Below, one piece after another: positions 4,958 to 42,551 of a DNA stretch of 64,000 bases; position 1 is the stretch's first letter; each line of letters opens with the position of its first letter. A program made the position numbers and the translations under genes. The notes under the pieces were generated by a model. It saw only the letters and a list, made by a program, of their open reading frames with translations. It was not told the DNA's origin and did not search any database. The stretch comes from a virus (taxonomy: Duplodnaviria; Heunggongvirae; Uroviricota; Caudoviricetes). Location: IMG/VR virus record IMGVR_UViG_2851976983_000001, positions 36,474 through 100,473 of that record. One strand, given 5' to 3'.

Positions 4958-6193
4958 TCAACCAAATATTTTTTGAACAACTTCACGAGCCGCTTGTGCA
5001 GAAGCTGAAGGGAGTTTGTTAATGAAAGAACGCTCAATACCTGTCACAAAGTCGCCTCGCATCATTCCAATCTTGGCCGACAACAAAAGTTCACGAGGGC
5101 CAATTGGCTGACTGATAAGGTGTTCTTCGTATCCATCGCGAACGATACCGGCAAACTTAACCATCTTTTCTGCGTATTCATCCACGATACCGGCATTTAT
5201 CAACATGTTGATCTCTGCCTCTTTGCTCATGTATTTCACATTCGAAACGATGCCAAAACGCGAAAAGTTCGCGGCGTTCTGGATGTTTGTACCCTGGTAC
5301 AAGCCGGTTTCATCACCAGATCCGTTCGTGTTGCCAGTGCCAATGAAAGCAAACCGTTCATGCGGAGTAATGCGACGCCATTCTGGAGTCGCCTCTTTGA
5401 TGACTAACGCTTCACCTTCCAGCACTGGCTGATACACGCCAAGAATTTGTGGAAACGCAAAGTCGTATTCATCCGCGAGGTAAACCCAGCCATGCTTCAT
5501 TGCGAGCGCAAGCAAGCCAGGCTCGAAATACGTAGAGCCATCACGCGCCAGAATTTGCCCCGTAACATGTGCCTCTTCCATTGATGCTGTATGTTGGGCA
5601 CGGATCAACGGACGATTGAGCAAAGCACATAGTTGTGTAGGCAATGACGATTTGCCTGTTCCTGCATGACCCCACAAATAGCCAGGTATGCCAAGTTCAA
5701 GCATCATGAAAATGTCTTTGATCAGTTCGAAGTCGCCATATACGTATCCCTTCTTCACTTCTGGAACGAACTCTGGAAACGGCGTATTGACGTTGACGCT
5801 AACCATGAGCGGCGTCCCACGTTTTGTTCCGAGTTCTTTCACCGTTACATTTAGCAGTTCGTGAGCTGCGACCAGATCTGTCTTGTACTCAACTGTGCCT
5901 GTGTAGCCTGGGCTACTGGTCACGCCAGATGATTTGGCCATTTCGCTTTTTTGCTCGGCACGTTTAGCTTGAATTGCATCAAGTGCCTTTTTCGATAGCG
6001 TTGGCTCATCTGGAAACTGTGTTGTGTACATTTTCAGTACGGTGTCAGGATCGGCATCTTTTACTGACTCAGGAATGCCCTCGCAATTACCATTGGCTAC
6101 ATGGGACTTAAAATAGTGAAATGATTTTCCGCACCACTTGCAAACAAGGTAATCAGAAGGATTTTTTTCATTTTGCAGTGCAGTAGTAGTCAT
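4958..6193 (-). CDS. AAA+ ATPase, CobS/MoxR-like
   Basis: Walker A GHAGTGKSS, Walker B-like VYLADEYD; N-terminal Cys cluster CKWCGK; immediately followed by a vWA partner. Confidence 0.6.
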   Translation of the reverse strand: MTTTALQNEKNPSDYLVCKWCGKSFHYFKSHVANGNCEGIPESVKDADPDTVLKMYTTQFPDEPTLSKKALDAIQAKRAEQKSEMAKSSGVTSSPGYTGTVEYKTDLVAAHELLNVTVKELGTKRGTPLMVSVNVNTPFPEFVPEVKKGYVYGDFELIKDIFMMLELGIPGYLWGHAGTGKSSLPTQLCALLNRPLIRAQHTASMEEAHVTGQILARDGSTYFEPGLLALAMKHGWVYLADEYDFAFPQILGVYQPVLEGEALVIKEATPEWRRITPHERFAFIGTGNTNGSGDETGLYQGTNIQNAANFSRFGIVSNVKYMSKEAEINMLINAGIVDEYAEKMVKFAGIVRDGYEEHLISQPIGPRELLLSAKIGMMRGDFVTGIERSFINKLPSASAQAAREVVQKIFG

Positions 6194-6288: not shown

Positions 6289-8397
6289 TCACTTTAAAAT
6301 GATACGAGATAGTTCAGTAACTACAGATGAACCAAGACTATCAACGCTCGTTACCAGGGCATGTTTTGAGTAAAATCTCTCCGGTGCGTCAGTCATGATG
6401 CCAATTGCCATCAAATCAATGTCAGTCTGCGTTTCAATTTGCTTCGCAACCGAACGCAAATGAGCGTCAAAACCTCTCCCAACAGCCCACGGCGCGCCAT
6501 CACTCAGAACAAGCATGATCTTCCTGTCCTCCATGCGACCGGAAAATAACGATGCAAGGCTGGCTATGCTTTCACCATCCACGTTATTAAGAAGTGGGAA
6601 TGTGTAGCCTACGCACCCCATACGTGAGCGAACTTCGCGAGAATTTACCTTTTCATTCCAATTTTTGATGATAGGTAGCATTAAAGATTCAAAGCGAGAG
6701 AACTCATACTTGACAGCCTTAAGTTCTCCTGCCGCCATATGACTACCAAATGTAGTGAAGCCGGTGATAATGTTGGGAACATTTATTCGATCAAGGGCAT
6801 CGGCGATGGTATATGCACTTGCAAGAGCCAATTGTATCGTTATACCACTCATTGAACCTGATAAATCAATCACTTGTTGAACACAGGCGTTAACGGCTTT
6901 AGATTCTTCTTTTTTACGAAACACGCGATCATCATTCATTGCTAATCTGTAGATACTAGAACCATGAATGCGCCCCCGACGCTGGCCCGGTATAAACTGA
7001 ACTCTGTTTCTGCTTGCTATTGCTCGCTCCAGGTCTTTTGCCAGCGTCGACGAAACACCTGACGAAAGATGCTTTTCAATATATTTGTCGAAGAGCTGGT
7101 TGCCTTCAGGAACGATGCGATAGCGGCTGATTGGATATCCTCCTAAATCAATATCGGAGAATGTTTTAATAAGCCGTTTGATATGGGCTTCTGCCTGATC
7201 AATCGAGCCGATGAAGTCGTATGAGCGATTGTATGGCCTGTATTCGCTTTTCGAGCTTTCTGTTAACTCGCTTTTAATCGTTTCGGATAGAGCATCTTCT
7301 GTCATGCCTCCGACTTCATCTTCTATGCTATCCAGCTCCTCTAAAGCCTCTTCCAGACTCATTTTTGACGGAGTTGGGATATCTGAAGAGCCGTCTTCTG
7401 TCGTTTTTCTTTTTTCGTGGTCAGCGGTTAATGATTCTGACGCCGCGTTATCAGAAGCATCAGAATCTGATACCTCTTTATCATTTTCTGTATCATCGAA
7501 TATTGTTTCTGATGATTCAGAATTATCTGAATCATCACTGTCATTATTATCATGTTTGTACTTACTGTGTGACTCTGGTTTGATAGATTTGTGATTATCT
7601 AGCGATGAGGGTGTCTCATGATCTTCGTCGTCTTCATTGTTTTCTCCAGAGGCATCCGTCTGGTCAGCGTCTGAAGGATCGGAAGTTTTTCCCGGAGCTG
7701 ACTCCTTACCTTTGCTTTCACTTTCAGTGTCTTTGAGGATCTTAGCTATGGTCGCAGCCACCTTTACACAATCCTCGGTGCAAGACATGTTACGCACGGC
7801 CACATCGATACCATGTTCTTTTAATAATGAAATTGGTTTCTCAATGACAGGCCAGTATTCATCCATGAAATCTACGAACGGTGCTTGGCCATCCCAGGCT
7901 CTTACAACCGGACAGAGAAAGAAGTTTAGAAAAAGCGCGCGCTGATCTTTGCCACAATAAGCAATAGCCTCTGAAGCCTTTGGTTTAAAGACTTTTTCGA
8001 TTATAAGGCGTTGAGTTGCCATCAGATTACGTCTTGTTCCGTTAAAGACCTGCCCCATTTTTCGCTCGATGAACACGTCTTCTAAGGCATTCCATAGCGA
8101 CCAGGAAGGAACGCGTCCTTTTTCTCTCATTTTGTTGGACACACGAATATCGGTAAACAAAATGTGAGCAACCTCATGATCGAGAAATCCGCGCACAGCA
8201 TTCATCAATGCCGGTGTTGCGTTATCCGGGATTGATGGGATGTTTACGAGAATTGGCTCTCCATCATCGTTATAGCGTACATAAGCGTCGTCTCCTCGTT
8301 CTGCAACAGGGATGTTTTTACCTGAAAGGAGAGCGACTACTCGTTTTACACTGTCACGGAAGTCCTGAACCTCTTTGATGGAACGTTTTTTAGACAT
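6289..8397 (-). CDS. CobT-like von Willebrand factor A domain protein with acidic low-complexity linker
   Basis: C-terminal vWA MIDAS motif VIDLSGSMSG (DxSxS); central D/E/S-rich region; paired with the upstream AAA+ ATPase. Confidence 0.6.
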   Translation of the reverse strand: MSKKRSIKEVQDFRDSVKRVVALLSGKNIPVAERGDDAYVRYNDDGEPILVNIPSIPDNATPALMNAVRGFLDHEVAHILFTDIRVSNKMREKGRVPSWSLWNALEDVFIERKMGQVFNGTRRNLMATQRLIIEKVFKPKASEAIAYCGKDQRALFLNFFLCPVVRAWDGQAPFVDFMDEYWPVIEKPISLLKEHGIDVAVRNMSCTEDCVKVAATIAKILKDTESESKGKESAPGKTSDPSDADQTDASGENNEDDEDHETPSSLDNHKSIKPESHSKYKHDNNDSDDSDNSESSETIFDDTENDKEVSDSDASDNAASESLTADHEKRKTTEDGSSDIPTPSKMSLEEALEELDSIEDEVGGMTEDALSETIKSELTESSKSEYRPYNRSYDFIGSIDQAEAHIKRLIKTFSDIDLGGYPISRYRIVPEGNQLFDKYIEKHLSSGVSSTLAKDLERAIASRNRVQFIPGQRRGRIHGSSIYRLAMNDDRVFRKKEESKAVNACVQQVIDLSGSMSGITIQLALASAYTIADALDRINVPNIITGFTTFGSHMAAGELKAVKYEFSRFESLMLPIIKNWNEKVNSREVRSRMGCVGYTFPLLNNVDGESIASLASLFSGRMEDRKIMLVLSDGAPWAVGRGFDAHLRSVAKQIETQTDIDLMAIGIMTDAPERFYSKHALVTSVDSLGSSVVTELSRIILK

Positions 8398-12382: not shown

Positions 12383-13171
12383 TCACGGCAGTTTTGCTCT
12401 AATTTCGAGTAATTTTTGTGCCGTGACGCTGATGTCATAAGCCAGATCTTGGGTTTGGTTAATGATTCCGTAAAAGCGCTCAACCTCTTCAGGATAAAAA
12501 CGTCTGATATGGGGGATGTCGATATAATCATAATACCCAAGCCCACCCGCGGAATATTCTCTGAAAAGCGCCCAAAAGTTGTTCACTTTCCCGACCAACT
12601 CCATACGGATTGTTTCTAAAACAACATCATTGAAGCTGTAAAAGGGGTTATAGGCAATATTATCAAATGCGTAGAGTGGGTCGGTAATGTTGGTGCTTAC
12701 TTTTGCCCGGAACTGTTCGCTCTTCAGCATTTGGAGGTAGTTATAATTAAAAATATCAGTAATAGCTTTTAGAACACCGATGTCTCTATCTGAGTAATTG
12801 TTCTGGCTCACCTGGTGCGTCATTTGAAGCAGTAAAGATTGCCGAGTTTCGGCCAGTTGCTTCCAGTTTTTCAATTGCTCAACAGAATAGATAGTGTGGT
12901 CAGAGTCAATGAGTGCGCCATGTGAACGACACATCCATATACCGTTATCAATCGAGCTTCGCTGTTCTGGGGTCAAGCTAGGATCATATCTCGGCCCACC
13001 TGGCGCTGCTGCTGTAATATGGGCCGCAATACCATTATTAATCCTGCCGTTTGTATCACTGCTATCCGGGCCTACTGTTGTCTGGTTGCAGCCAAGAAAA
13101 GAGCATTTCCAGCCTACGCGTTCGGCCAGTGTTCGCTTCACCGATTGGGGAAAATCATCTCTGTTACTCAC
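12383..13171 (-). CDS. HNH endonuclease-like domain protein with uncharacterised C-terminal domain
   Basis: N-terminal WKCSFLGCN...AAHI...NGIWMCRSHGALID (Cys pairs plus His/Asn spacing of HNH nucleases); the remaining ~150 aa match nothing I recognise. Confidence 0.5.
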   Translation of the reverse strand: MSNRDDFPQSVKRTLAERVGWKCSFLGCNQTTVGPDSSDTNGRINNGIAAHITAAAPGGPRYDPSLTPEQRSSIDNGIWMCRSHGALIDSDHTIYSVEQLKNWKQLAETRQSLLLQMTHQVSQNNYSDRDIGVLKAITDIFNYNYLQMLKSEQFRAKVSTNITDPLYAFDNIAYNPFYSFNDVVLETIRMELVGKVNNFWALFREYSAGGLGYYDYIDIPHIRRFYPEEVERFYGIINQTQDLAYDISVTAQKLLEIRAKLP

Positions 13172-13844: not shown

Positions 13845-14573
13845 TTAACCGATGCTGTTTTGATACCTGCGAACTGCCGCATCCAATTCACTAACATATC
13901 GATTAAACTCACCCACAACATACTCCAAAAATTGATCGTCCATGAGGACACCGTTGAAGAAATTTACTGTTATACCGGCGTTTTCATTCTTTGCACGATT
14001 GATTGCGCGGATATCTCGCTTCTGTGTTTCTGACTTCTTTGCTTTTGATTTTAAAAGGTTATGATAGTTTTCGGCAACACCATCGTTGTGAGCCATGATA
14101 TTTCTGATGGCCGCCAGATGAGCAATATCCCTGATGCCTTTGCCTCCTATGGTTCCAGTAAGTCGCTTATGGCAATCTTCGACCGTTTTGAATCTTTTGT
14201 CTGTCACCTCGCCCGACAATCTATCCATGACCTCAAGGCATTCAACCATGCGGTGTTCAAATAACCCGAACATCGTCAGAAATGCCGAACGACGAGTAAG
14301 TTGTGAAATCAAGTGCTTGTATTCCGATTTGACTTCATCAGCATCGAATCCAGAACATGAACCGCAGGTAAAATACTGTACCGTATATAGATGAATTTTA
14401 CCTTCATCGTCCTCATGCTCATCGTCATACTCACCCTCCGAGACTGCGCCCGGAAGATCGGCATCACTAAGAGCGCGAGCAATGTTTACTTCAGCCTGTT
14501 CAGCTAGCATCTTCATGATTGTAATTGATTTCGTGGCTCCCCAAAGTTGTAGATTAATAAATATCTTTGCCAT
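13845..14573 (-). CDS. hypothetical protein with HEPN-like Rx4H motif
   Basis: IAHLAAIRNIMAHND contains R-x4-H; acidic N-terminal stretch; last gene upstream of the tRNA region. Confidence 0.3.
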   Translation of the reverse strand: MAKIFINLQLWGATKSITIMKMLAEQAEVNIARALSDADLPGAVSEGEYDDEHEDDEGKIHLYTVQYFTCGSCSGFDADEVKSEYKHLISQLTRRSAFLTMFGLFEHRMVECLEVMDRLSGEVTDKRFKTVEDCHKRLTGTIGGKGIRDIAHLAAIRNIMAHNDGVAENYHNLLKSKAKKSETQKRDIRAINRAKNENAGITVNFFNGVLMDDQFLEYVVGEFNRYVSELDAAVRRYQNSIG

Positions 14574-14656
14574 CTTCCTTGTTCCTTAGAGTGTTCGGAG
14601 AAGATCCAAATAGCGTCAACCAAATGCCGCTGAATTCATATGTACGACCGCAAAGC

Positions 14657-14680
14657 AAAATGGGGCCGAAGCCCCATTTT
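14657..14680. terminator. bidirectional terminator hairpin
   Basis: AAAATGGGGCCGAAGCCCCATTTT; same GGGGCCGAAGCCCC core as 15141..15164. Confidence 0.55.
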
Positions 14681-14835
14681 ATTCAAACTATTTATTCTGC
14701 TGGCACCTAAACAAAAGGTAAAGCATAAGCAGAGATAGGACTTGGCTATGCAGAGGAGCCTGAATAAATGTCGTTAGCATTTCACTCATCGAAAGATACC
14801 TCTATTCGATTAATCAAATGCGCTACGAGACCAAA

Positions 14836-14864
14836 TTGACGTAGATTCACCTTAGTTGTAAGAT
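14836..14864 (+). promoter_or_regulatory. strong sigma70 promoter candidate on the plus strand
   Basis: -35 TTGACG (14836..14841), 17-nt spacer, -10 TAAGAT (14859..14864). Confidence 0.45.
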
Positions 14865-14870
14865 GAACTT

Positions 14871-14969
14871 GTATTGACGTATCCGTTCTCGTAACGCGAT
14901 ATGAGGTTTTTAACGATGGCAGTCGTTAAAAACCAGAAAGAACTCCCGTTCGGGGGTTCTTTTTTTTTT
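14871..14969 (+). ncRNA. candidate ~100-nt small RNA
   Basis: Downstream of the promoter above; two hairpins (14905..14934 with an 11-bp stem; 14939..14960) followed by a T9 tract; no plausible ORF. Confidence 0.3.
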
Positions 14970-15140
14970 GCGTAGTAGTCACTTTCCCATTGCACTTCCC
15001 TCTCGTTGTATGAAAACTACGGATTGTAGCATTTCCAATAGCTTGTTTATAATTTGCATAGCATAGCACAACCCACATGCGCATGTAGGACTGACAGGAA
15101 TTGCCCCACAACGTATAAAAAAGTTTGTGATTATCAAAGA

Positions 15141-15164
15141 AAAAAGGGGCCGAAGCCCCTTTGG
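15141..15164. terminator. bidirectional terminator hairpin
   Basis: AAAAAGGGGCCGAAGCCCCTTTGG. Confidence 0.5.
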
Positions 15165-15236
15165 ATTATGGTTTGCGCTAAAAAAGTGTTGCTACGATGC
15201 TAAGAAGCAATGGTTAAGAACGTCTGCCGTGTCTAT

Positions 15237-15319
15237 CACAGCGCTGAACGGTTTGGCGACATTTGCGGAGTCTTTCCGTTCGGACGGTGGTGGCGAACTC
15301 CAAACCGTTCAGCGCTGTG
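15237..15319. repeat. long perfect inverted repeat (20-bp arms) abutting the tRNA 3' end
   Basis: CACAGCGCTGAACGGTTTGG ... CCAAACCGTTCAGCGCTGTG with ~43-nt loop. Confidence 0.6.
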
Positions 15320-15320
15320 T

Positions 15321-15395
15321 TGGCGATGGTGGGTGGACTCGAACCACCGACCAGTTGATTAACAGTCAACCGCTCTACCACTGAGCTACACCATC
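15321..15395 (-). tRNA. tRNA-Asn (anticodon GUU)
   Basis: Minus-strand sequence GATGGTG-TA-GCTC-AGTGGTA-GAGC-G-GTTGA-CTGTTAA-TCAAC-TGGTC-GGTGG-TTCGAGT-CCACC-CACCATC-G-CCA folds as a cloverleaf with encoded CCA; 75 nt. Confidence 0.85.
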
Positions 15396-15834
15396 ATATT
15401 TCGCGGCGGTACTTGTTGATGGACAACCAGGCAACCAGGAACTTTCCCGCAACTTGCACTTTACGTTAGTGCCAGACGAGGCTTGTGGCGCGCTCACATA
15501 GAGCAAAGATCTGGAATCCTTCTCGGTGGTTGACGGCCGCCAGATTCTTCGATCTTATTGGATGTATGGAATCATCCATGTTGTGAAACCAGGGGCTACA
15601 TAGGCAACAATGATTTCACCAGAGGGTTAAAGAATCCTGCTTTCACAACGTTGAGGCCGCTGAACCGATTTATGTTCGACCCAACATATTGATCAGTCAC
15701 TACAGCTCTGTGGAATCACCTGTATGATTAAAAGAAAAACAGTGACCTCAACGTTGTGCGCTGGCTAACCAAGCCAGCCGGGTTACGTCGCCGCTTTTAA
15801 CCCAAGATTAAACGACATAAGTAATGGAAATGAC

Positions 15835-15949
15835 GTAACAGGATGGACGGTCAGCTGGCTGAAACCGGGATGATGGAATGGAATGAGGAAACCAACCGTC
15901 CATCCTGTTACTTCATCGAATAGGGCATGGGTGGTGCAACATGCCCTAT
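15835..15949. repeat. two consecutive strong hairpins in an ORF-free region
   Basis: 16-bp perfect stem GTAACAGGATGGACGG/CCGTCCATCCTGTTAC (15835..15911) then 10-bp stem ATAGGGCATG/CATGCCCTAT (15920..15949). Confidence 0.5.
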
Positions 15950-16143
15950 CCTGCGTTCTGAAATCACACTCGCTCAGTGTGTCCCATTTCGGTGACGAGG
16001 CTGGAAACTGACCTCGCTGGTGTTTGGCTTCTTAGGCTACTGCCAGGTACGTATCTTCGTTTGCAGTTATATTTAACGTTCAAACAGTCGCATCTCAACG
16101 AAAACAAGTGAATCTTATACGTATTAAATAAGTAAGTAAATGC

Positions 16144-16449
16144 TTATTTTTCTGTGGCTCGTTCAGTTGCTATCTTTTTGATCAAACTCACCTTCTGTTC
16201 CGGCGTTCTCGTGATGATGGCCGTAAAACGCTTCGCATGAATAGTGATAGTTTCGTTCTCCTTCAGTTCACCGTAGTGAGTCTCCAGCAGAGAACCCAGG
16301 CGCCACAGGCCGTCGTCTATGCGTTTATGGCTGGCAAATCTGATCAGCAGTAGCTTTACGATTAACTGACCAATGTAAAAGGCATATCCGAAGCCGGCCG
16401 CCACAAGGTAGGTTACCAGCCACCAGTAGAAAGAGGTCAAATTGCTCAT
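16144..16449 (-). CDS. hypothetical membrane protein
   Basis: N-terminal hydrophobic helix FYWWLVTYLVAAGFGYAFYIGQLIV; start overlaps the upstream stop. Confidence 0.5.
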   Translation of the reverse strand: MSNLTSFYWWLVTYLVAAGFGYAFYIGQLIVKLLLIRFASHKRIDDGLWRLGSLLETHYGELKENETITIHAKRFTAIITRTPEQKVSLIKKIATERATEK

Positions 16450-36155: not shown

Positions 36156-39100
36156 ATTAAGTATGTACCTACTTATTTTTACCTATATAAATATTTTTTT
36201 CTACATTACAGAAGGCCAATTCTTACTCGTAGGACGTTGTTATCGTCATAAACGTCAATCCGCTGACCATTTATGACCAGTCGCCCATTACCCCCGCTAT
36301 TACCGTTGATCTCAAGCGTTCCATTTTTGCCGAACCGCCATCCAGATCTACCGCTAACAAAATTGGTAGATTGCAGATCGCCTACTTTTGCATTGGTGAT
36401 TGTGCCATCCTTGATATACGCACCATTCATATAGGCGATACTGTTTTCGATAACAAATGGCGTGGTGATCTTCCCGTTAACAGAGTTGACCAAACCAAAC
36501 CTGTCAGCCTGCACCAAAAACTGAGAAAGGCCAGTGGTGTCGATACCAAGCGCAATACCAGCAACATACTTCTGCCCTCCGCTCGTTGAAGTCTCCATTT
36601 TCAACGTCCACGCGGTTGACACTTTTTTGTTGGTATCAGCAATAGCTGTTGCCTGCTGTTGAATTGTCGCGGTATTTCCATCCACCTCTGCTTTCAGAGT
36701 GTCGATTCGCCCACTTAGAGCATTATCTGCCTGCGTTCTCGCTGTCGTTTCAGTTGTGACCGCCGCAGAAATGTTGGCTGCTGTTTGAGACTCTAAGTTT
36801 GTGATTTGAGTCGCCAATGCCGCATCTTGCTCTGTACGCGTTTTCGTTTCGGTTGCTACAGCCGCTTTAATATCCTCTTTGTATTGAGAGGTCAGCTTGG
36901 TGATCTGAGACGACAACGCCGAGTCAGCATCAGTTCGAGCCTGCGTTTCAACTGCAACGGCCGCACTAATATCTTTCGCTGTCTGTGCTTTTAAACTTGA
37001 AACCTCTTTTGTTAAAGCGGTATCACCATCAGCACGAGCCGTTGTTTCTCTGGCAAGAGATGCCTCGAGATCATTAGCTTTTGCTGTAAGAGACGAAATC
37101 TGAGTGGACAATGCACTATCGGCATCAGTCCTTGCCTTTGTCTCTACAGCAACCGCTGCGGCAATATCAGTTCCGGTTTGTGCTCGCAGGCTGTTAATTT
37201 CTCGTGAGAGCGCCTGGTCAGCACTTGCTCTGGTCTCCTGCTCCTGAGTGATGGCAGCGGATATATCACCGTCAACCTTTGACTGAAGCTGGTTTATTTG
37301 TTTGGCTAACGCAGAGTCCCCGCTTGCTCGGGCCTCCTGCTCACTACGTATTGCAGCAGAAATATCATCATCAACCTTTGCCTGAAGTTGGGTGATCTGG
37401 CTTGCCAGAGCCGAATCTTCCGTTGCTCGGGCTTCTTGCTCTTCCTTAATAGCTGCGACGATATCGTTGCTTACTTTCGACTCAAGCTGAGTGATCTGTG
37501 TCGTCAGAGCTTCATCGGCAGATGTGCGAGCCTCCTGCTCTGTACTAATCGCCGCGCTGATATCTCCTTCAAACTTAGATTGCAGCTGAGTGACACGCTT
37601 TGCCAACGCTTCATCGCCATCGGCACGAGCGGTGGACTCTTCCAGAATACTGGCCTTAATGTCTTCGCCAATTTCTACGCGAATTTCCTCAACCTTCGTG
37701 GCCATTGCAGACATATCATCAGCAAAGGTTTTCTGTGTTGTTGCGATCTTCGCGTTATTGACCATCTGCTTGTGCTGGTCTTCATCTTGACGAAGAGCCA
37801 GGTCAATATTTGTTTTGGCTAACGCCTCAATGTTCGTAGTCAGTTCTGCACTGGCACGATCGACCTCTGCAACCGTCTTTTTCATTTCTTCAACGGCAGC
37901 GGAGCTTTCCTCTACCGTTGACTGCAACACTTCCAGTTGTTTAGCGTTTGCAGCATCGCCTTCAACACGAGCCTCGCTTTCCTTAGCAATAAGAGCCGCC
38001 GCTTCATCTCTTGCAGCCTTTATTGCCTCGACTGTATTAGCGAGAGCTTTATCGTGTTCAGATACGGTGTTTTCGATTTCAACAATTGCAGCATCAGTAG
38101 CATCAATTTTTTCAAACGCTTCATTGACCTTGTCGATCGTTGCCGAAACCTCACCTTTAAGCTCGGTTTGTGCGTTCTCCAAAGCATCGCTACGCTCGTT
38201 GAATTTTATTTCAAAACCCGCGAGGTTATCGCTGAACTGCTTATCTAATTCAGCTATATCTTCCTTAACGTCGTTTACCGACCCCTCCAAAGATTCGACG
38301 CTCTGGTTGATATGCTCATTTAACTCGTCAACTGCTTCTTGAGAGGCTTTGCTGTTGATGTCCTCAAGCAGAGCCTGACCAAGCTCGGAAGATGTAATTT
38401 TGCCAGCCAGGAACGACAGTACATCGCGAGTTGTCGCCTCTGTACCCAAGTTTGAGTTCGGAGGGCTTAACATACCTCGCTTGTTCGATGCTCGAACCCA
38501 GTAATACCACGTTTCGCTATCCCCAAGACCAGCATGTGTAAAGGTGGTGCTTGCAGACTCTGCGATCAGTTTCGCCGTATCCAGATTGTTGGTCTGGGAT
38601 GCGTAAACATTAATGTGATCAAGGTCTACCGAATCTGGATTAACCCAATTCAGTATCACATTACGATAGTCTCCAACGGCCGTTAATGACGTTGGGGCAT
38701 CCGGCGGTGTCATTGTGCCCAACACCTGATAAACGGTACTGATAATCTCTGTTTTTTTACCGTTGAATGAAACCGCATACAGTTGGAAGTCGTAGTGTCC
38801 ATTCTCCGCGACATTAACGATTTCGTATTGCTCTTCGGTTACACGCGCCGATTGCCAGTTCGATACATTGTTTTCATCAGAACGTCGCCAACTGATCCAA
38901 TACTCTGGAGATTTTCCTTCCCATGTTGCAGTCAGTTTTACTGACAGGTTGCCCGGGCTTGAGAGATAAGTCCCTTCAGTGATTTGCAGATTAGATGGCT
39001 TGGAGTAAGTTGGGTCCAATACCGTCGTATTCTGCGGGATCAGCGTTGCGCCATTGTCGATTGCCTCATATTTAGACGGATTGTTCTCAACAGCGGTGAT

Positions 39101-41199: not shown

Positions 41200-41522
41200 A
41201 TGACTAAAAATACTCGTTTTTCCCCCGAAGTCCGTCAACGGGCAGTCCGTATGGTTCTGGAAAGTCAGGATGAATATGACTCACAGTGGGCGGCAATTTG
41301 TTCCATTGCCCCAAAGATTGGCTGTACGCCGGAGACTCTGCGTGTCTGGGTTCGCCAGCATGAGCGGGATACCGGGGGCGGTGATGGTGGGCTCACCAGC
41401 GCTGAACGTCAGCGTCTGAAAGAGCTGGAACGTGAAAATCGTGAACTGCGCCGCAGTAACGATATCCTTCGCCAGGCTTCCGCTTATTTTGCGAAGGCGG
41501 AGTTCGACCGCCTCTGGAAGAA

Positions 41523-41526
<4 letters not shown>
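41200..41526 (+). CDS. IS3-family transposase OrfA
   Basis: [57 protein letters not shown] (HTH + leucine zipper). Confidence 0.9.

Positions 41527-42551
<1,025 letters not shown>

Follow-up and report, generated by a model that had tools for sequence, protein, structure and literature searches.

A conserved, unannotated stem-loop flush with the 3' end of a phage-plasmid tRNA-Asn gene belongs to a hairpin family and is a candidate RNA processing element

The tRNA cluster of phage T4 is co-transcribed with two stable RNAs of about 120 to 140 nucleotides (nt), species 1 and 2 (rnaC and rnaD), whose function is undefined; species 1 RNA is a substrate of RNase III in vitro. The 3' trailer of the Escherichia coli glyW-cysT-leuZ tRNA operon yields 3'ETS-leuZ (ETS, external transcribed spacer), a sponge of small RNAs (sRNAs), and hairpins such as the T7 R1.1-type sites and lambda sib are RNase III processing sites in polycistronic phage transcripts. 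GOLLD and ROOL RNAs are phage encoded, occur "often near tRNA islands," and sometimes have tRNAs in a linker (PMC12286853). The locus described here lies in a 64,000-nt stretch of a Caudoviricetes record (IMG/VR IMGVR_UViG_2851976983_000001, positions 36,474 to 100,473; this whole stretch is referred to as the window) and consists, on the minus strand, of a tRNA-Asn(GUU) gene, a long hairpin directly 3' of it (HP-C), and a 3' trailer. The hairpin is real, conserved, and unannotated and is most readily classed with the structured spacer or processing RNAs of phage tRNA transcription units; it is an RNA element and neither a terminator nor an attachment (att) site.

The 401-bp tRNA/hairpin stretch of the window was 100% identical to E. 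coli plasmid p503829_100 (NZ_CP025870.1). Over the tRNA/hairpin region, identity was also 100% to pHCM2 of Salmonella Typhi CT18 and 97.7%, with partial coverage, to Salmonella phage SSU5. The window is a phage-plasmid of the pHCM2/SSU5 type.

HP-C occupies positions 15237 to 15319 (minus strand), with the 5' arm of the transcribed strand at 15300 to 15319, the loop at 15257 to 15299, and the 3' arm at 15237 to 15256. An earlier reading made from the letters of the window (the sequence-only reading) had described a perfect 20-bp inverted repeat with a loop of about 43 nt directly 3' of the tRNA, and this description was borne out exactly: the arms (CACAGCGCUGAACGGUUUGG and CCAAACCGUUCAGCGCUGUG on the transcribed strand) are 20 nt each, 100% complementary, and 43 nt apart, for 83 nt in all, and a single A stands between the tRNA CCA and the stem. 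The RNA fold was predicted at -44.3 kcal/mol (z = -6.1), and none of 200 shuffled sequences was as stable. The pattern of its ends, CACARCG...CGYTGTG, has 0.03 chance occurrences expected per window, and when the whole window was scanned for closely spaced repeats, HP-C was the sole perfect inverted repeat reported. Strong inverted repeats with wide spacing were almost all located at 15.2 to 15.9 kb; the window had four of them besides HP-C, three at most 600 nt from it. The inverted repeat is thus not a product of chance. Within the loop, alignment and motif search identified a conserved motif, AAGACUCCGC (GCGGAGTCTT on the plus strand), at 15265 to 15274 on the minus strand.

Counted from the hairpin, the trailer is about 180 nt long and comprises the hairpin, a linker, a U-rich stretch, and a strong intrinsic terminator. 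The linker (positions 15163 to 15236, minus strand), conserved in near-invariant alignment columns, is 74 nt long and contains AUAGACA..CGGCAGACGUUCUUAACCAU.., a weak stem, and a U6 run at its end. The terminator, AAAGGGGC-UUCG-GCCCCUUU followed by a U tract (15137 to 15162, minus strand), closes the tRNA/trailer unit; the terminator scan called it at 15143 to 15162, about 75 nt past HP-C, where the minus strand reads AAAGGGGC-UUCG-GCCCCUUUUUUC. A very stable stem directly 3' of a tRNA could itself be thought to act as the terminator or attenuator of the tRNA gene, but this is very improbable for HP-C, since the stem is followed by ATAGACAC with no T run, a loop of 43 nt is much too large for a terminator, and the scan skipped 15237 to 15319 and called the canonical terminator downstream instead. 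Moreover, similar hairpins in relatives lie between tRNAs that need to be co-transcribed. An intrinsic terminator identity of 15237 to 15319 was therefore rejected, in agreement with the sequence-only reading, which had considered the hairpin no simple terminator.

Conservation was assessed across about 100 related loci (identified by L numbers where needed), which were collected from plasmid and phage records and from viral contigs searched with the 3' half of the tRNA. HP-C was aligned from 29 distinct relatives, which, like the sequences used below for HP-B and the leader, are related to each other and represent few independent events. Across this alignment, 98.4% of the cells of the 20-bp stem were paired, and compensatory pairs were present at positions 14/87 (UA and CG; 8 sequences) and 18/83 (GC and AU; 11 sequences). 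The covariation score was matched by 0 of 500 shuffles, and pairing dropped to 21 to 55% in slid controls, so that compensatory and G.U changes exceeded both kinds of control, as is generally expected of conserved structured RNAs. Position 23/78 was U.G in 28 of the 29 sequences; therefore, the perfect repeat is a peculiarity of the pHCM2 lineage. Among all catalogued stems of the hairpin family (see below), 63 positions were of the G.U type and 5 of the A.C type on the tRNA-sense strand. Because compensatory changes were accompanied by G.U pairs on the tRNA-sense strand only, the stem is judged to be selected as RNA, on that strand.

Some features of the locus would suit a role in DNA, whether as a recombination or cassette boundary for the exchange of tRNA modules, as an invertible segment, or as a replication signal of the single-strand initiation type. 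SSU5 (L002, about position 5998) ceases to be homologous to the window at 15278, which is exactly the center of symmetry of the palindrome; past this point, SSU5 is joined directly to a cobT-like gene and lacks about 8 kb of the window (7.1 to 15.28 kb) holding integrase, regulator, GrxA, Gp49, PhoH, HNH-like, and HEPN-like genes. In L063, a homologue of the paralogous hairpin HP-B (7638 to 7749; window 15644 to 15758) is inverted exactly between its 19-bp arms, and its flanks are collinear. The numbers of tRNAs and hairpins vary among relatives in the manner of cassettes, and a tyrosine recombinase gene is located 5 kb from HP-C. Nevertheless, a DNA-level role is improbable. Inversion was found in 1 of about 100 loci and in none at HP-C, the element is single copy, and a duplex protein-binding site would not be expected to vary through compensatory changes and G.U pairs restricted to the tRNA-sense strand. 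The SSU5 endpoint and the L063 inversion look like palindrome-driven rearrangements, that is, by-products of palindrome instability; given the rarity of inversion and the strand-specific G.U pattern, DNA recombination is interpreted as a by-product and not as a selected function.

Two known classes of repeat were also compared with HP-C and rejected. Integron attC core sites carry R''/R' (RYYYAAC...GTTRRRY) at the base of their hairpin. The arms of HP-C read (A)CACAGCG...CGCTGTG(A) and do not fit this pattern, and the nearby recombinase matched a generic NCBIfam integrase domain (33.8 bits) and no integron-integrase model, which speaks against an attC site or gene cassette. Dispersed repeats of the REP, ERIC, or MITE kind were ruled out by distribution: HP-C with its trailer was found at 243 places in 242 of 5,426 complete E. 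coli genomes (median, one per genome), on plasmids in every case and on chromosomes in none, and long hairpins in the window cluster only at 15.2 to 15.9 kb.

HP-C belongs, as its terminal member, to a family of long stem-loops with ends CACARC...GYTGTG and stems of 19 to 27 bp, a kinship that the sequence-only reading had not recognized. A paralogue in the leader upstream of the tRNA, HP-B (CACAACGUUGAGG...CCUCAACGUUGUG; positions 15644 to 15758, minus strand), was recovered by inverted-repeat scans and starts with CACAACGUUGAGG, compared with CACAGCGUUGAGC in HP-C of the LF82 type. Its 19-bp stem contains 4 compensatory pairs across 25 distinct relatives, with 24 single-sided changes of the G.U type (G.U or U.G) versus 5 cells with nonstandard pairs. 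A further leader stem-loop, HP-A (15830 to 15916, minus strand), has a stem of 22 to 27 bp and is likewise conserved with compensatory and G.U changes. Hairpins located between tRNAs in the relatives start with CACAAC(A)GGUAAG or CACAACGAUAAG. In 96 nonidentical arrays, every one of the 74 cases that were scored strictly had the first base of the hairpin at -2, +1, or +2 relative to the end of the CCA. The loops differed strongly between hairpin types. An independent scan with the HP-B pattern returned 17 further loci, most of which were again tRNA arrays. No annotation covers the hairpins in the record, and a search of positions 14550 to 16200 against Rfam 15, at gathering thresholds and at E values of ≤10, passed only the tRNA, with nothing for the hairpins. 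No match of the window hairpins to the DicF, C4, STnc100, GOLLD, or ROOL families was obtained; the sub-threshold matches were to microRNA precursors, as is typical of any long hairpin.

The leader as a whole (positions 15396 to 16110, minus strand) is structured and contains no coding sequence in the record annotation. It spans about 750 nt that can be aligned across divergent lineages, and RNAalifold analysis of 13 diverse relatives yielded at least eight conserved stem-loops, including HP-A and HP-B, with 126 pairs, 17 of which showed compensatory change. The minimum free energy z score was -6.3 for the sense strand and -4.9 for the antisense strand. Such a densely structured leader, together with tRNAs that sit embedded between hairpins and with the presence of part of the leader and of some hairpin types in the leader of the P1 ban operon, raises the question of whether leader, tRNA, and trailer form a structured RNA of about 1 kb that functions as a whole and includes HP-C as a domain; this RNA would be an enterobacterial phage-plasmid counterpart of GOLLD and ROOL, which share the association with tRNAs noted above. 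We consider this improbable: no large-RNA family of Rfam was matched even at an E value of ≤10, the predicted structure consists nearly entirely of local hairpins with little supported long-range pairing, and modules are shuffled, duplicated, and deleted among relatives, a pattern that fits independent units better than one folded body.

The explanation that we favor, tentatively and at a little less than an even chance, is that the stem-loops are cis-acting modules for processing and end protection of a polycistronic tRNA transcript. In this view, one minus-strand transcript would contain both HP-C and the cargo tRNA-Asn. Cleavage, either at the 3' end of the tRNA or, in the manner of RNase III, within the stem of about 20 bp, would then leave the tRNA with only a short tail, since the stem begins within -2 to +2 nt of the CCA, and exonuclease trimming of the freed tRNA would follow. 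The remaining downstream RNA, capped at its 5' end by the flush stem-loop and bounded by the terminator, would persist as a stable by-product. A stem of 20 bp is about the minimum for a substrate of E. coli RNase III, and 5'-terminal stem-loops stabilize E. coli RNAs. With 20 bp in HP-C and 19 to 27 bp in the paralogues, the stems have the near-continuous double-stranded length of a candidate RNase III site (about 20 bp or more). The genes upstream of the leader are co-oriented with the tRNA, and an annotated transcription unit of phage P1, the ban operon under control of the C1 repressor, contains the homologous tRNA and related hairpins. A co-transcribed, processed RNA, as envisaged by the sequence-only reading, would be in line with all of the findings.

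Several observations weigh against this explanation. No sigma-70-like promoter was called by a promoter scan of the minus strand from 14800 to 16200, and transcription is therefore assumed to occur as read-through from the co-oriented upstream genes. A literature search on these hairpins, on sRNAs of pHCM2, and on RNA of the P1 ban operon returned nothing relevant. The basal CACARC/GYTGTG sequence and the loop motif AAGACUCCGC are conserved although a generic RNase III or capping hairpin would need neither, which hints at a sequence-specific partner. SSU5 is a viable phage despite the loss of linker, terminator, and the 3' half of the hairpin; the element is therefore dispensable for lytic growth. 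Finally, strand asymmetry taken alone would also be compatible with a function of a DNA strand, because G.T pairs stabilize hairpins of single-stranded DNA.

The trailer was conserved as well. The tRNA arrays of relatives vary (Asn alone, Asn-Ser, Asn-Thr-Ser, or Asn-Tyr-Thr-Ser, sometimes with Met in addition), and hairpin-carrying SSU5-like arrays, with few exceptions, end in a homologue of the hairpin followed by linker and terminator, whichever tRNA is last. The module closes the array after Asn or Ser and was also present without an intact preceding tRNA in three loci (L011, L082, and L104). The loops of HP-C fall into five types and were replaced several times, with AAGACUCCGC retained in four of the five, and the linker (ATAGACA..CGGCAGACGTTCTTAACCAT..; near-invariant in CGGCAGACGUUCUUAACC) was maintained across lineages with differing hairpin loops. 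The terminator was kept in 26 of the 29 relatives, and 3 of the 29 distinct sequences differed after the hairpin; the Klebsiella relatives L049, L101, L062, and L110 kept the hairpin with other sequence downstream.

Persistence of the module without its tRNA, the constancy of linker and loop motif, and an architecture of the Hfq type (a U6 run and then a GC-rich terminator with a U tail) would be in keeping with a trans-acting sRNA of the 3'-external-transcribed-spacer type, in which the hairpin and trailer, once released from the tRNA, pair with or sponge host or plasmid RNAs through the linker and/or AAGACUCCGC. This is unlikely, if still a serious candidate. A duplex scan of the 64-kb window for the linker and motif gave self-complement matches only, with no convincing complementary site; the complement of the motif occurred once, with 1 mismatch, within a coding region. 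The Klebsiella relatives with a different downstream sequence and the absence of the module from SSU5 also argue against such an sRNA. Also unlikely, and slightly more so, is a broader proposal that the string of CACARC...GYTGTG stem-loops with its embedded tRNAs (about 1 to 2.5 kb) constitutes an undescribed structured-RNA family, expressed early by phage-plasmids of the P1 and SSU5/pHCM2 types and having a function of its own beyond tRNA processing (for example, regulatory, decoy, or anti-defense), which would make it the enterobacterial counterpart of tRNA-island RNAs.

The tRNA gene itself, with encoded CCA, G73, and the anticodon loop CUGUUAA, is located at positions 15321 to 15395 (minus strand). 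It was the only tRNA called by ARAGORN in the whole 64 kb (tRNA-Asn, anticodon gtt) and scored 76.2 bits against the Rfam tRNA family (RF00005; gathering score, 29). On the minus strand it reads GAUGGUG...CACCAUC-G-CCA, so CCA is encoded in the gene, and the canonical fold proposed from the letters was thereby upheld. Compared with E. coli K-12 asnT, the acceptor, anticodon, and T stems differ, as the sequence-only reading had anticipated for the acceptor stem, while the anticodon loop and G73 are the same. The same reading was mistaken in taking the discriminator G as a difference from the host, for asnT also ends in ...GAGGA-G-CCA. The identity set of asparaginyl-tRNA synthetase (AsnRS) comprises G34-U35-U36 and the discriminator G73. 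As both elements (GUU and G73) are present in the alignment with asnT, the tRNA is predicted to be chargeable by enterobacterial AsnRS.

The gene is a known cargo gene and is not new, a point missed in the sequence-only reading: it is annotated as tRNA-Asn in the identical plasmid record and in SSU5 and corresponds to trnA of phage P1 (NC_005856), with which it is 91% identical and shares the acceptor stem and anticodon arm. It is also noted in the genome announcements of pECOH89 and AnCo3. Relatives of this tRNA family were found in 774 of the 5,426 complete E. coli genomes, with 792 of 805 places on plasmids; the search matched no host asn genes except for one weak partial match to a chromosomal tRNA-Asn. 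No second copy of the 3' 25-mer of the tRNA was found in the window with up to 3 mismatches allowed. The differences from asnT in all four stems, the unduplicated 3' end, and the plasmid location rule out an att site or host tRNA integration target, and the suggestion that the tRNA is mobile-element cargo held.

A supply of codons does not explain the presence of the gene. Across 24 element genes, the Asn codons AAC and AAU were used at 21.3 and 17.6 per 1,000 codons, respectively, which we take to be about the E. coli level, and the codon-usage rationale implied by the sequence-only reading was consequently dropped. The codons ACA, UCA, AGA, and AUA were enriched in the element; matching tRNAs are carried by relatives and not by the window. 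The tRNA keeps host identity elements and more plausibly acts during infection as an addition to, or a substitute for, host tRNA-Asn (for example, in the face of defenses that cleave tRNAs). P1 carries tRNAs for Asn and Thr(UGU); in SSU5-like relatives, tRNA-Asn may be accompanied by tRNAs for Tyr, Thr(UGU), Ser(UGA), Arg(UCU), and Met. Asn in the window and Thr(UGU), Tyr, Ser(UGA), and Arg(UCU) in the relatives overlap the published targets of PARIS and OLD, the latter of which cleaves tRNA-Thr(UGU) among others. This content suggests a possible anti-defense role instead of codon supplementation. Evasion of PARIS by tRNA sequence was rejected, as the tRNA of the window retains an AriB-type site (U36-A-A-U-C|A41) that resembles the cleaved motif, unlike the escape variant; tRNA-Asn of LF82-type relatives carries U39C. 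Anti-defense tRNA supply is a reasonable lead, but only a lead.

Several variants of the tRNA-Asn gene and its arrays were encountered. In L006, L008, and 14 other loci, a tRNA-Arg(UCU) with the same acceptor stem and T arm and a different D loop and anticodon arm was found at the position of tRNA-Asn, which looks like a swap of the anticodon arm. In L090, a single-base change converts the anticodon of tRNA-Asn from GTT to GTG, and the gene was called as His. Truncated tRNA-Asn genes were present in L104, L117, and L126. In L071, L075, L091, and L108, tRNA-Asn is immediately followed by a tRNA-Thr-like 5' half (GCCGGTTTAGCTCAGTGGGAGAGCAC) and then by about 130 nt of unrelated structured sequence; this was not called by ARAGORN and may be an interrupted or intron-bearing tRNA. 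A 14-mer, CTTTTTTAGCGCAA, is common to the element trailer (window 15173 to 15186, minus strand) and the trailer of E. coli asnT (L112, 1133 to 1146), either as a vestige of a bacterial tRNA-Asn locus or as low-complexity chance.

At the start of the leader (window 16050 to 16085, minus strand; columns 63 to 100 of the leader alignment), a conserved inverted repeat, ATAAGTA-N6-TACTTAT, overlaps promoter-like hexamers, which read TTTACT-17-TATGAT in Klebsiella-type relatives and have a spacing of 15 in the window type. It may be an operator/promoter of the tRNA/hairpin transcript, although it was not called by the promoter scan. An unrelated temperate-phage contig has a hairpin resembling HP-B (GCAACGTTGAGAGC...GCTCTCAACGTTGTG; L121, 1965 to 2070) in its early leader; there, a CI-like repressor gene, a promoter-like site with operator-like repeats, a leader of about 0.8 kb, and a ParB-like gene follow in that order, with no tRNA nearby.

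In the plasmid record, the tRNA locus is flanked on one side by phage replication genes (ligase, primase/helicase, and dnaE) and on the other by a variable block (PhoH, glutaredoxin, and integrase), with tail genes further away. Just downstream of the trailer terminator, positions 13845 to 14573 (minus strand) encode a hypothetical protein of 242 amino acids with an R-N-I-M-A-H motif of the HEPN Rx4H type. It gave weak PADLOC matches to HEPN models (RTasHEPN, E = 9e-4, and Cas13c), nothing significant in Pfam (one match below threshold), no match in NCBIfam, and no sequence relatives in the PDB. A link between this gene and the hairpin or tRNA was dropped because SSU5 and LF82-type plasmids lack the gene and keep the tRNA and/or hairpin. 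A second hypothetical protein, of 262 amino acids (12383 to 13171, minus strand), matched nuclease domains of defense effectors in PADLOC over its N-terminal approximately 125 residues (PDC-M68A, 1.6e-23; CBASS endonuclease effectors; and Shedu SduA). Together with PhoH, these nuclease-like and HEPN-like genes look like a variable defense/accessory islet adjoining the tRNA locus.

Elsewhere in the window, positions 562 to 980 contain a cspA-type thermoregulator 5' untranslated region (RF01766; 185.7 bits) ahead of a plasmid-borne cspG. At about 31.8 to 42.4 kb, the insertion sequences IS2 and IS100 and an IS3-family element (ALIL pseudoknot at 41481 to 41597) disrupt tail-fiber and host-specificity genes, and the phage functions of this copy are probably defective because of these interruptions.

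Phage-plasmids of the pHCM2/SSU5-like and P1-like types are common in clinical Enterobacteriaceae, and the records examined show no annotation for the noncoding block of about 1 kb around their tRNAs. The value of the locus lies in the breadth of the hairpin family and its undefined role, not in the tRNA. If the stem-loops are processing or capping modules, they would account for a quick supply of mature tRNA from a single early transcript; as independent RNAs, they would constitute a widespread unannotated family of noncoding RNAs in important plasmids. In either case, the hairpin is a documented weak point in the DNA, as a deletion endpoint in SSU5 lies at its center.

Among described elements, SSU5, pECOH89, AnCo3, and the LF82 plasmid carry the same tRNA-Asn gene at the same locus, and their reports list the tRNA only; in SSU5, only the 5' arm and half of the loop of the hairpin are retained. 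P1 is, like the element in the window, a phage-plasmid, but of a different phage family. P1 and P1-like elements share hairpin types with the SSU5 type (GGTAAGGG..CCCTTACC, flush after trnT, and CACNACAACGTTGAGAAC...) and have a stem-loop that is homologous to one of those in the leader and shows compensatory changes. The order of modules differs, the HP-B-like hairpin lying downstream of the tRNAs in P1 and upstream in the window, and neither HP-C nor its trailer was found in P1. For the hairpin region, annotation in the P1 record is limited to a "dicF-like region" and the antisense open reading frames plp and upl. Sub-threshold matches to STnc100 (RF02076; 30 to 36 bits versus a gathering score of 47) were located in P1 (L111, 3556 to 3675), L109 (725 to 845), L071 (3357 to 3475), and L015 (5180 to 5291), shortly downstream of tRNA-Ser in the P1-like L015 and L071 and about 580 nt downstream of trnT in P1 and L109, both of which lack tRNA-Ser; the window contained no STnc100 match.

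Similarities to the better-known RNA systems are partial in each case. As with GOLLD and ROOL (PMC12286853), conserved structured noncoding RNA lies beside or interleaved with phage tRNA genes, but in the window type it forms a string of local hairpins instead of a pseudoknotted body and has no Rfam match. The trailer resembles 3'ETS-leuZ as a tRNA-operon 3' trailer that reaches to the operon terminator, and 3'ETS-leuZ survives processing as a discrete RNA; that RNA, in contrast, is short and lacks a 20-bp hairpin at its 5' end. Long stems of about two helical turns that set RNA ends and stability are found in the T7 R1.1-type and lambda sib hairpins, for which loops of 43 to 85 nt with conserved motifs, as found in the window type, would be atypical. 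The T4 stable RNAs offer a likeness as structured RNAs that lie among the tRNAs of a phage transcription unit and are freed from it by processing; compared with them, the window type is distinguished by many paralogous hairpins with a common basal sequence.

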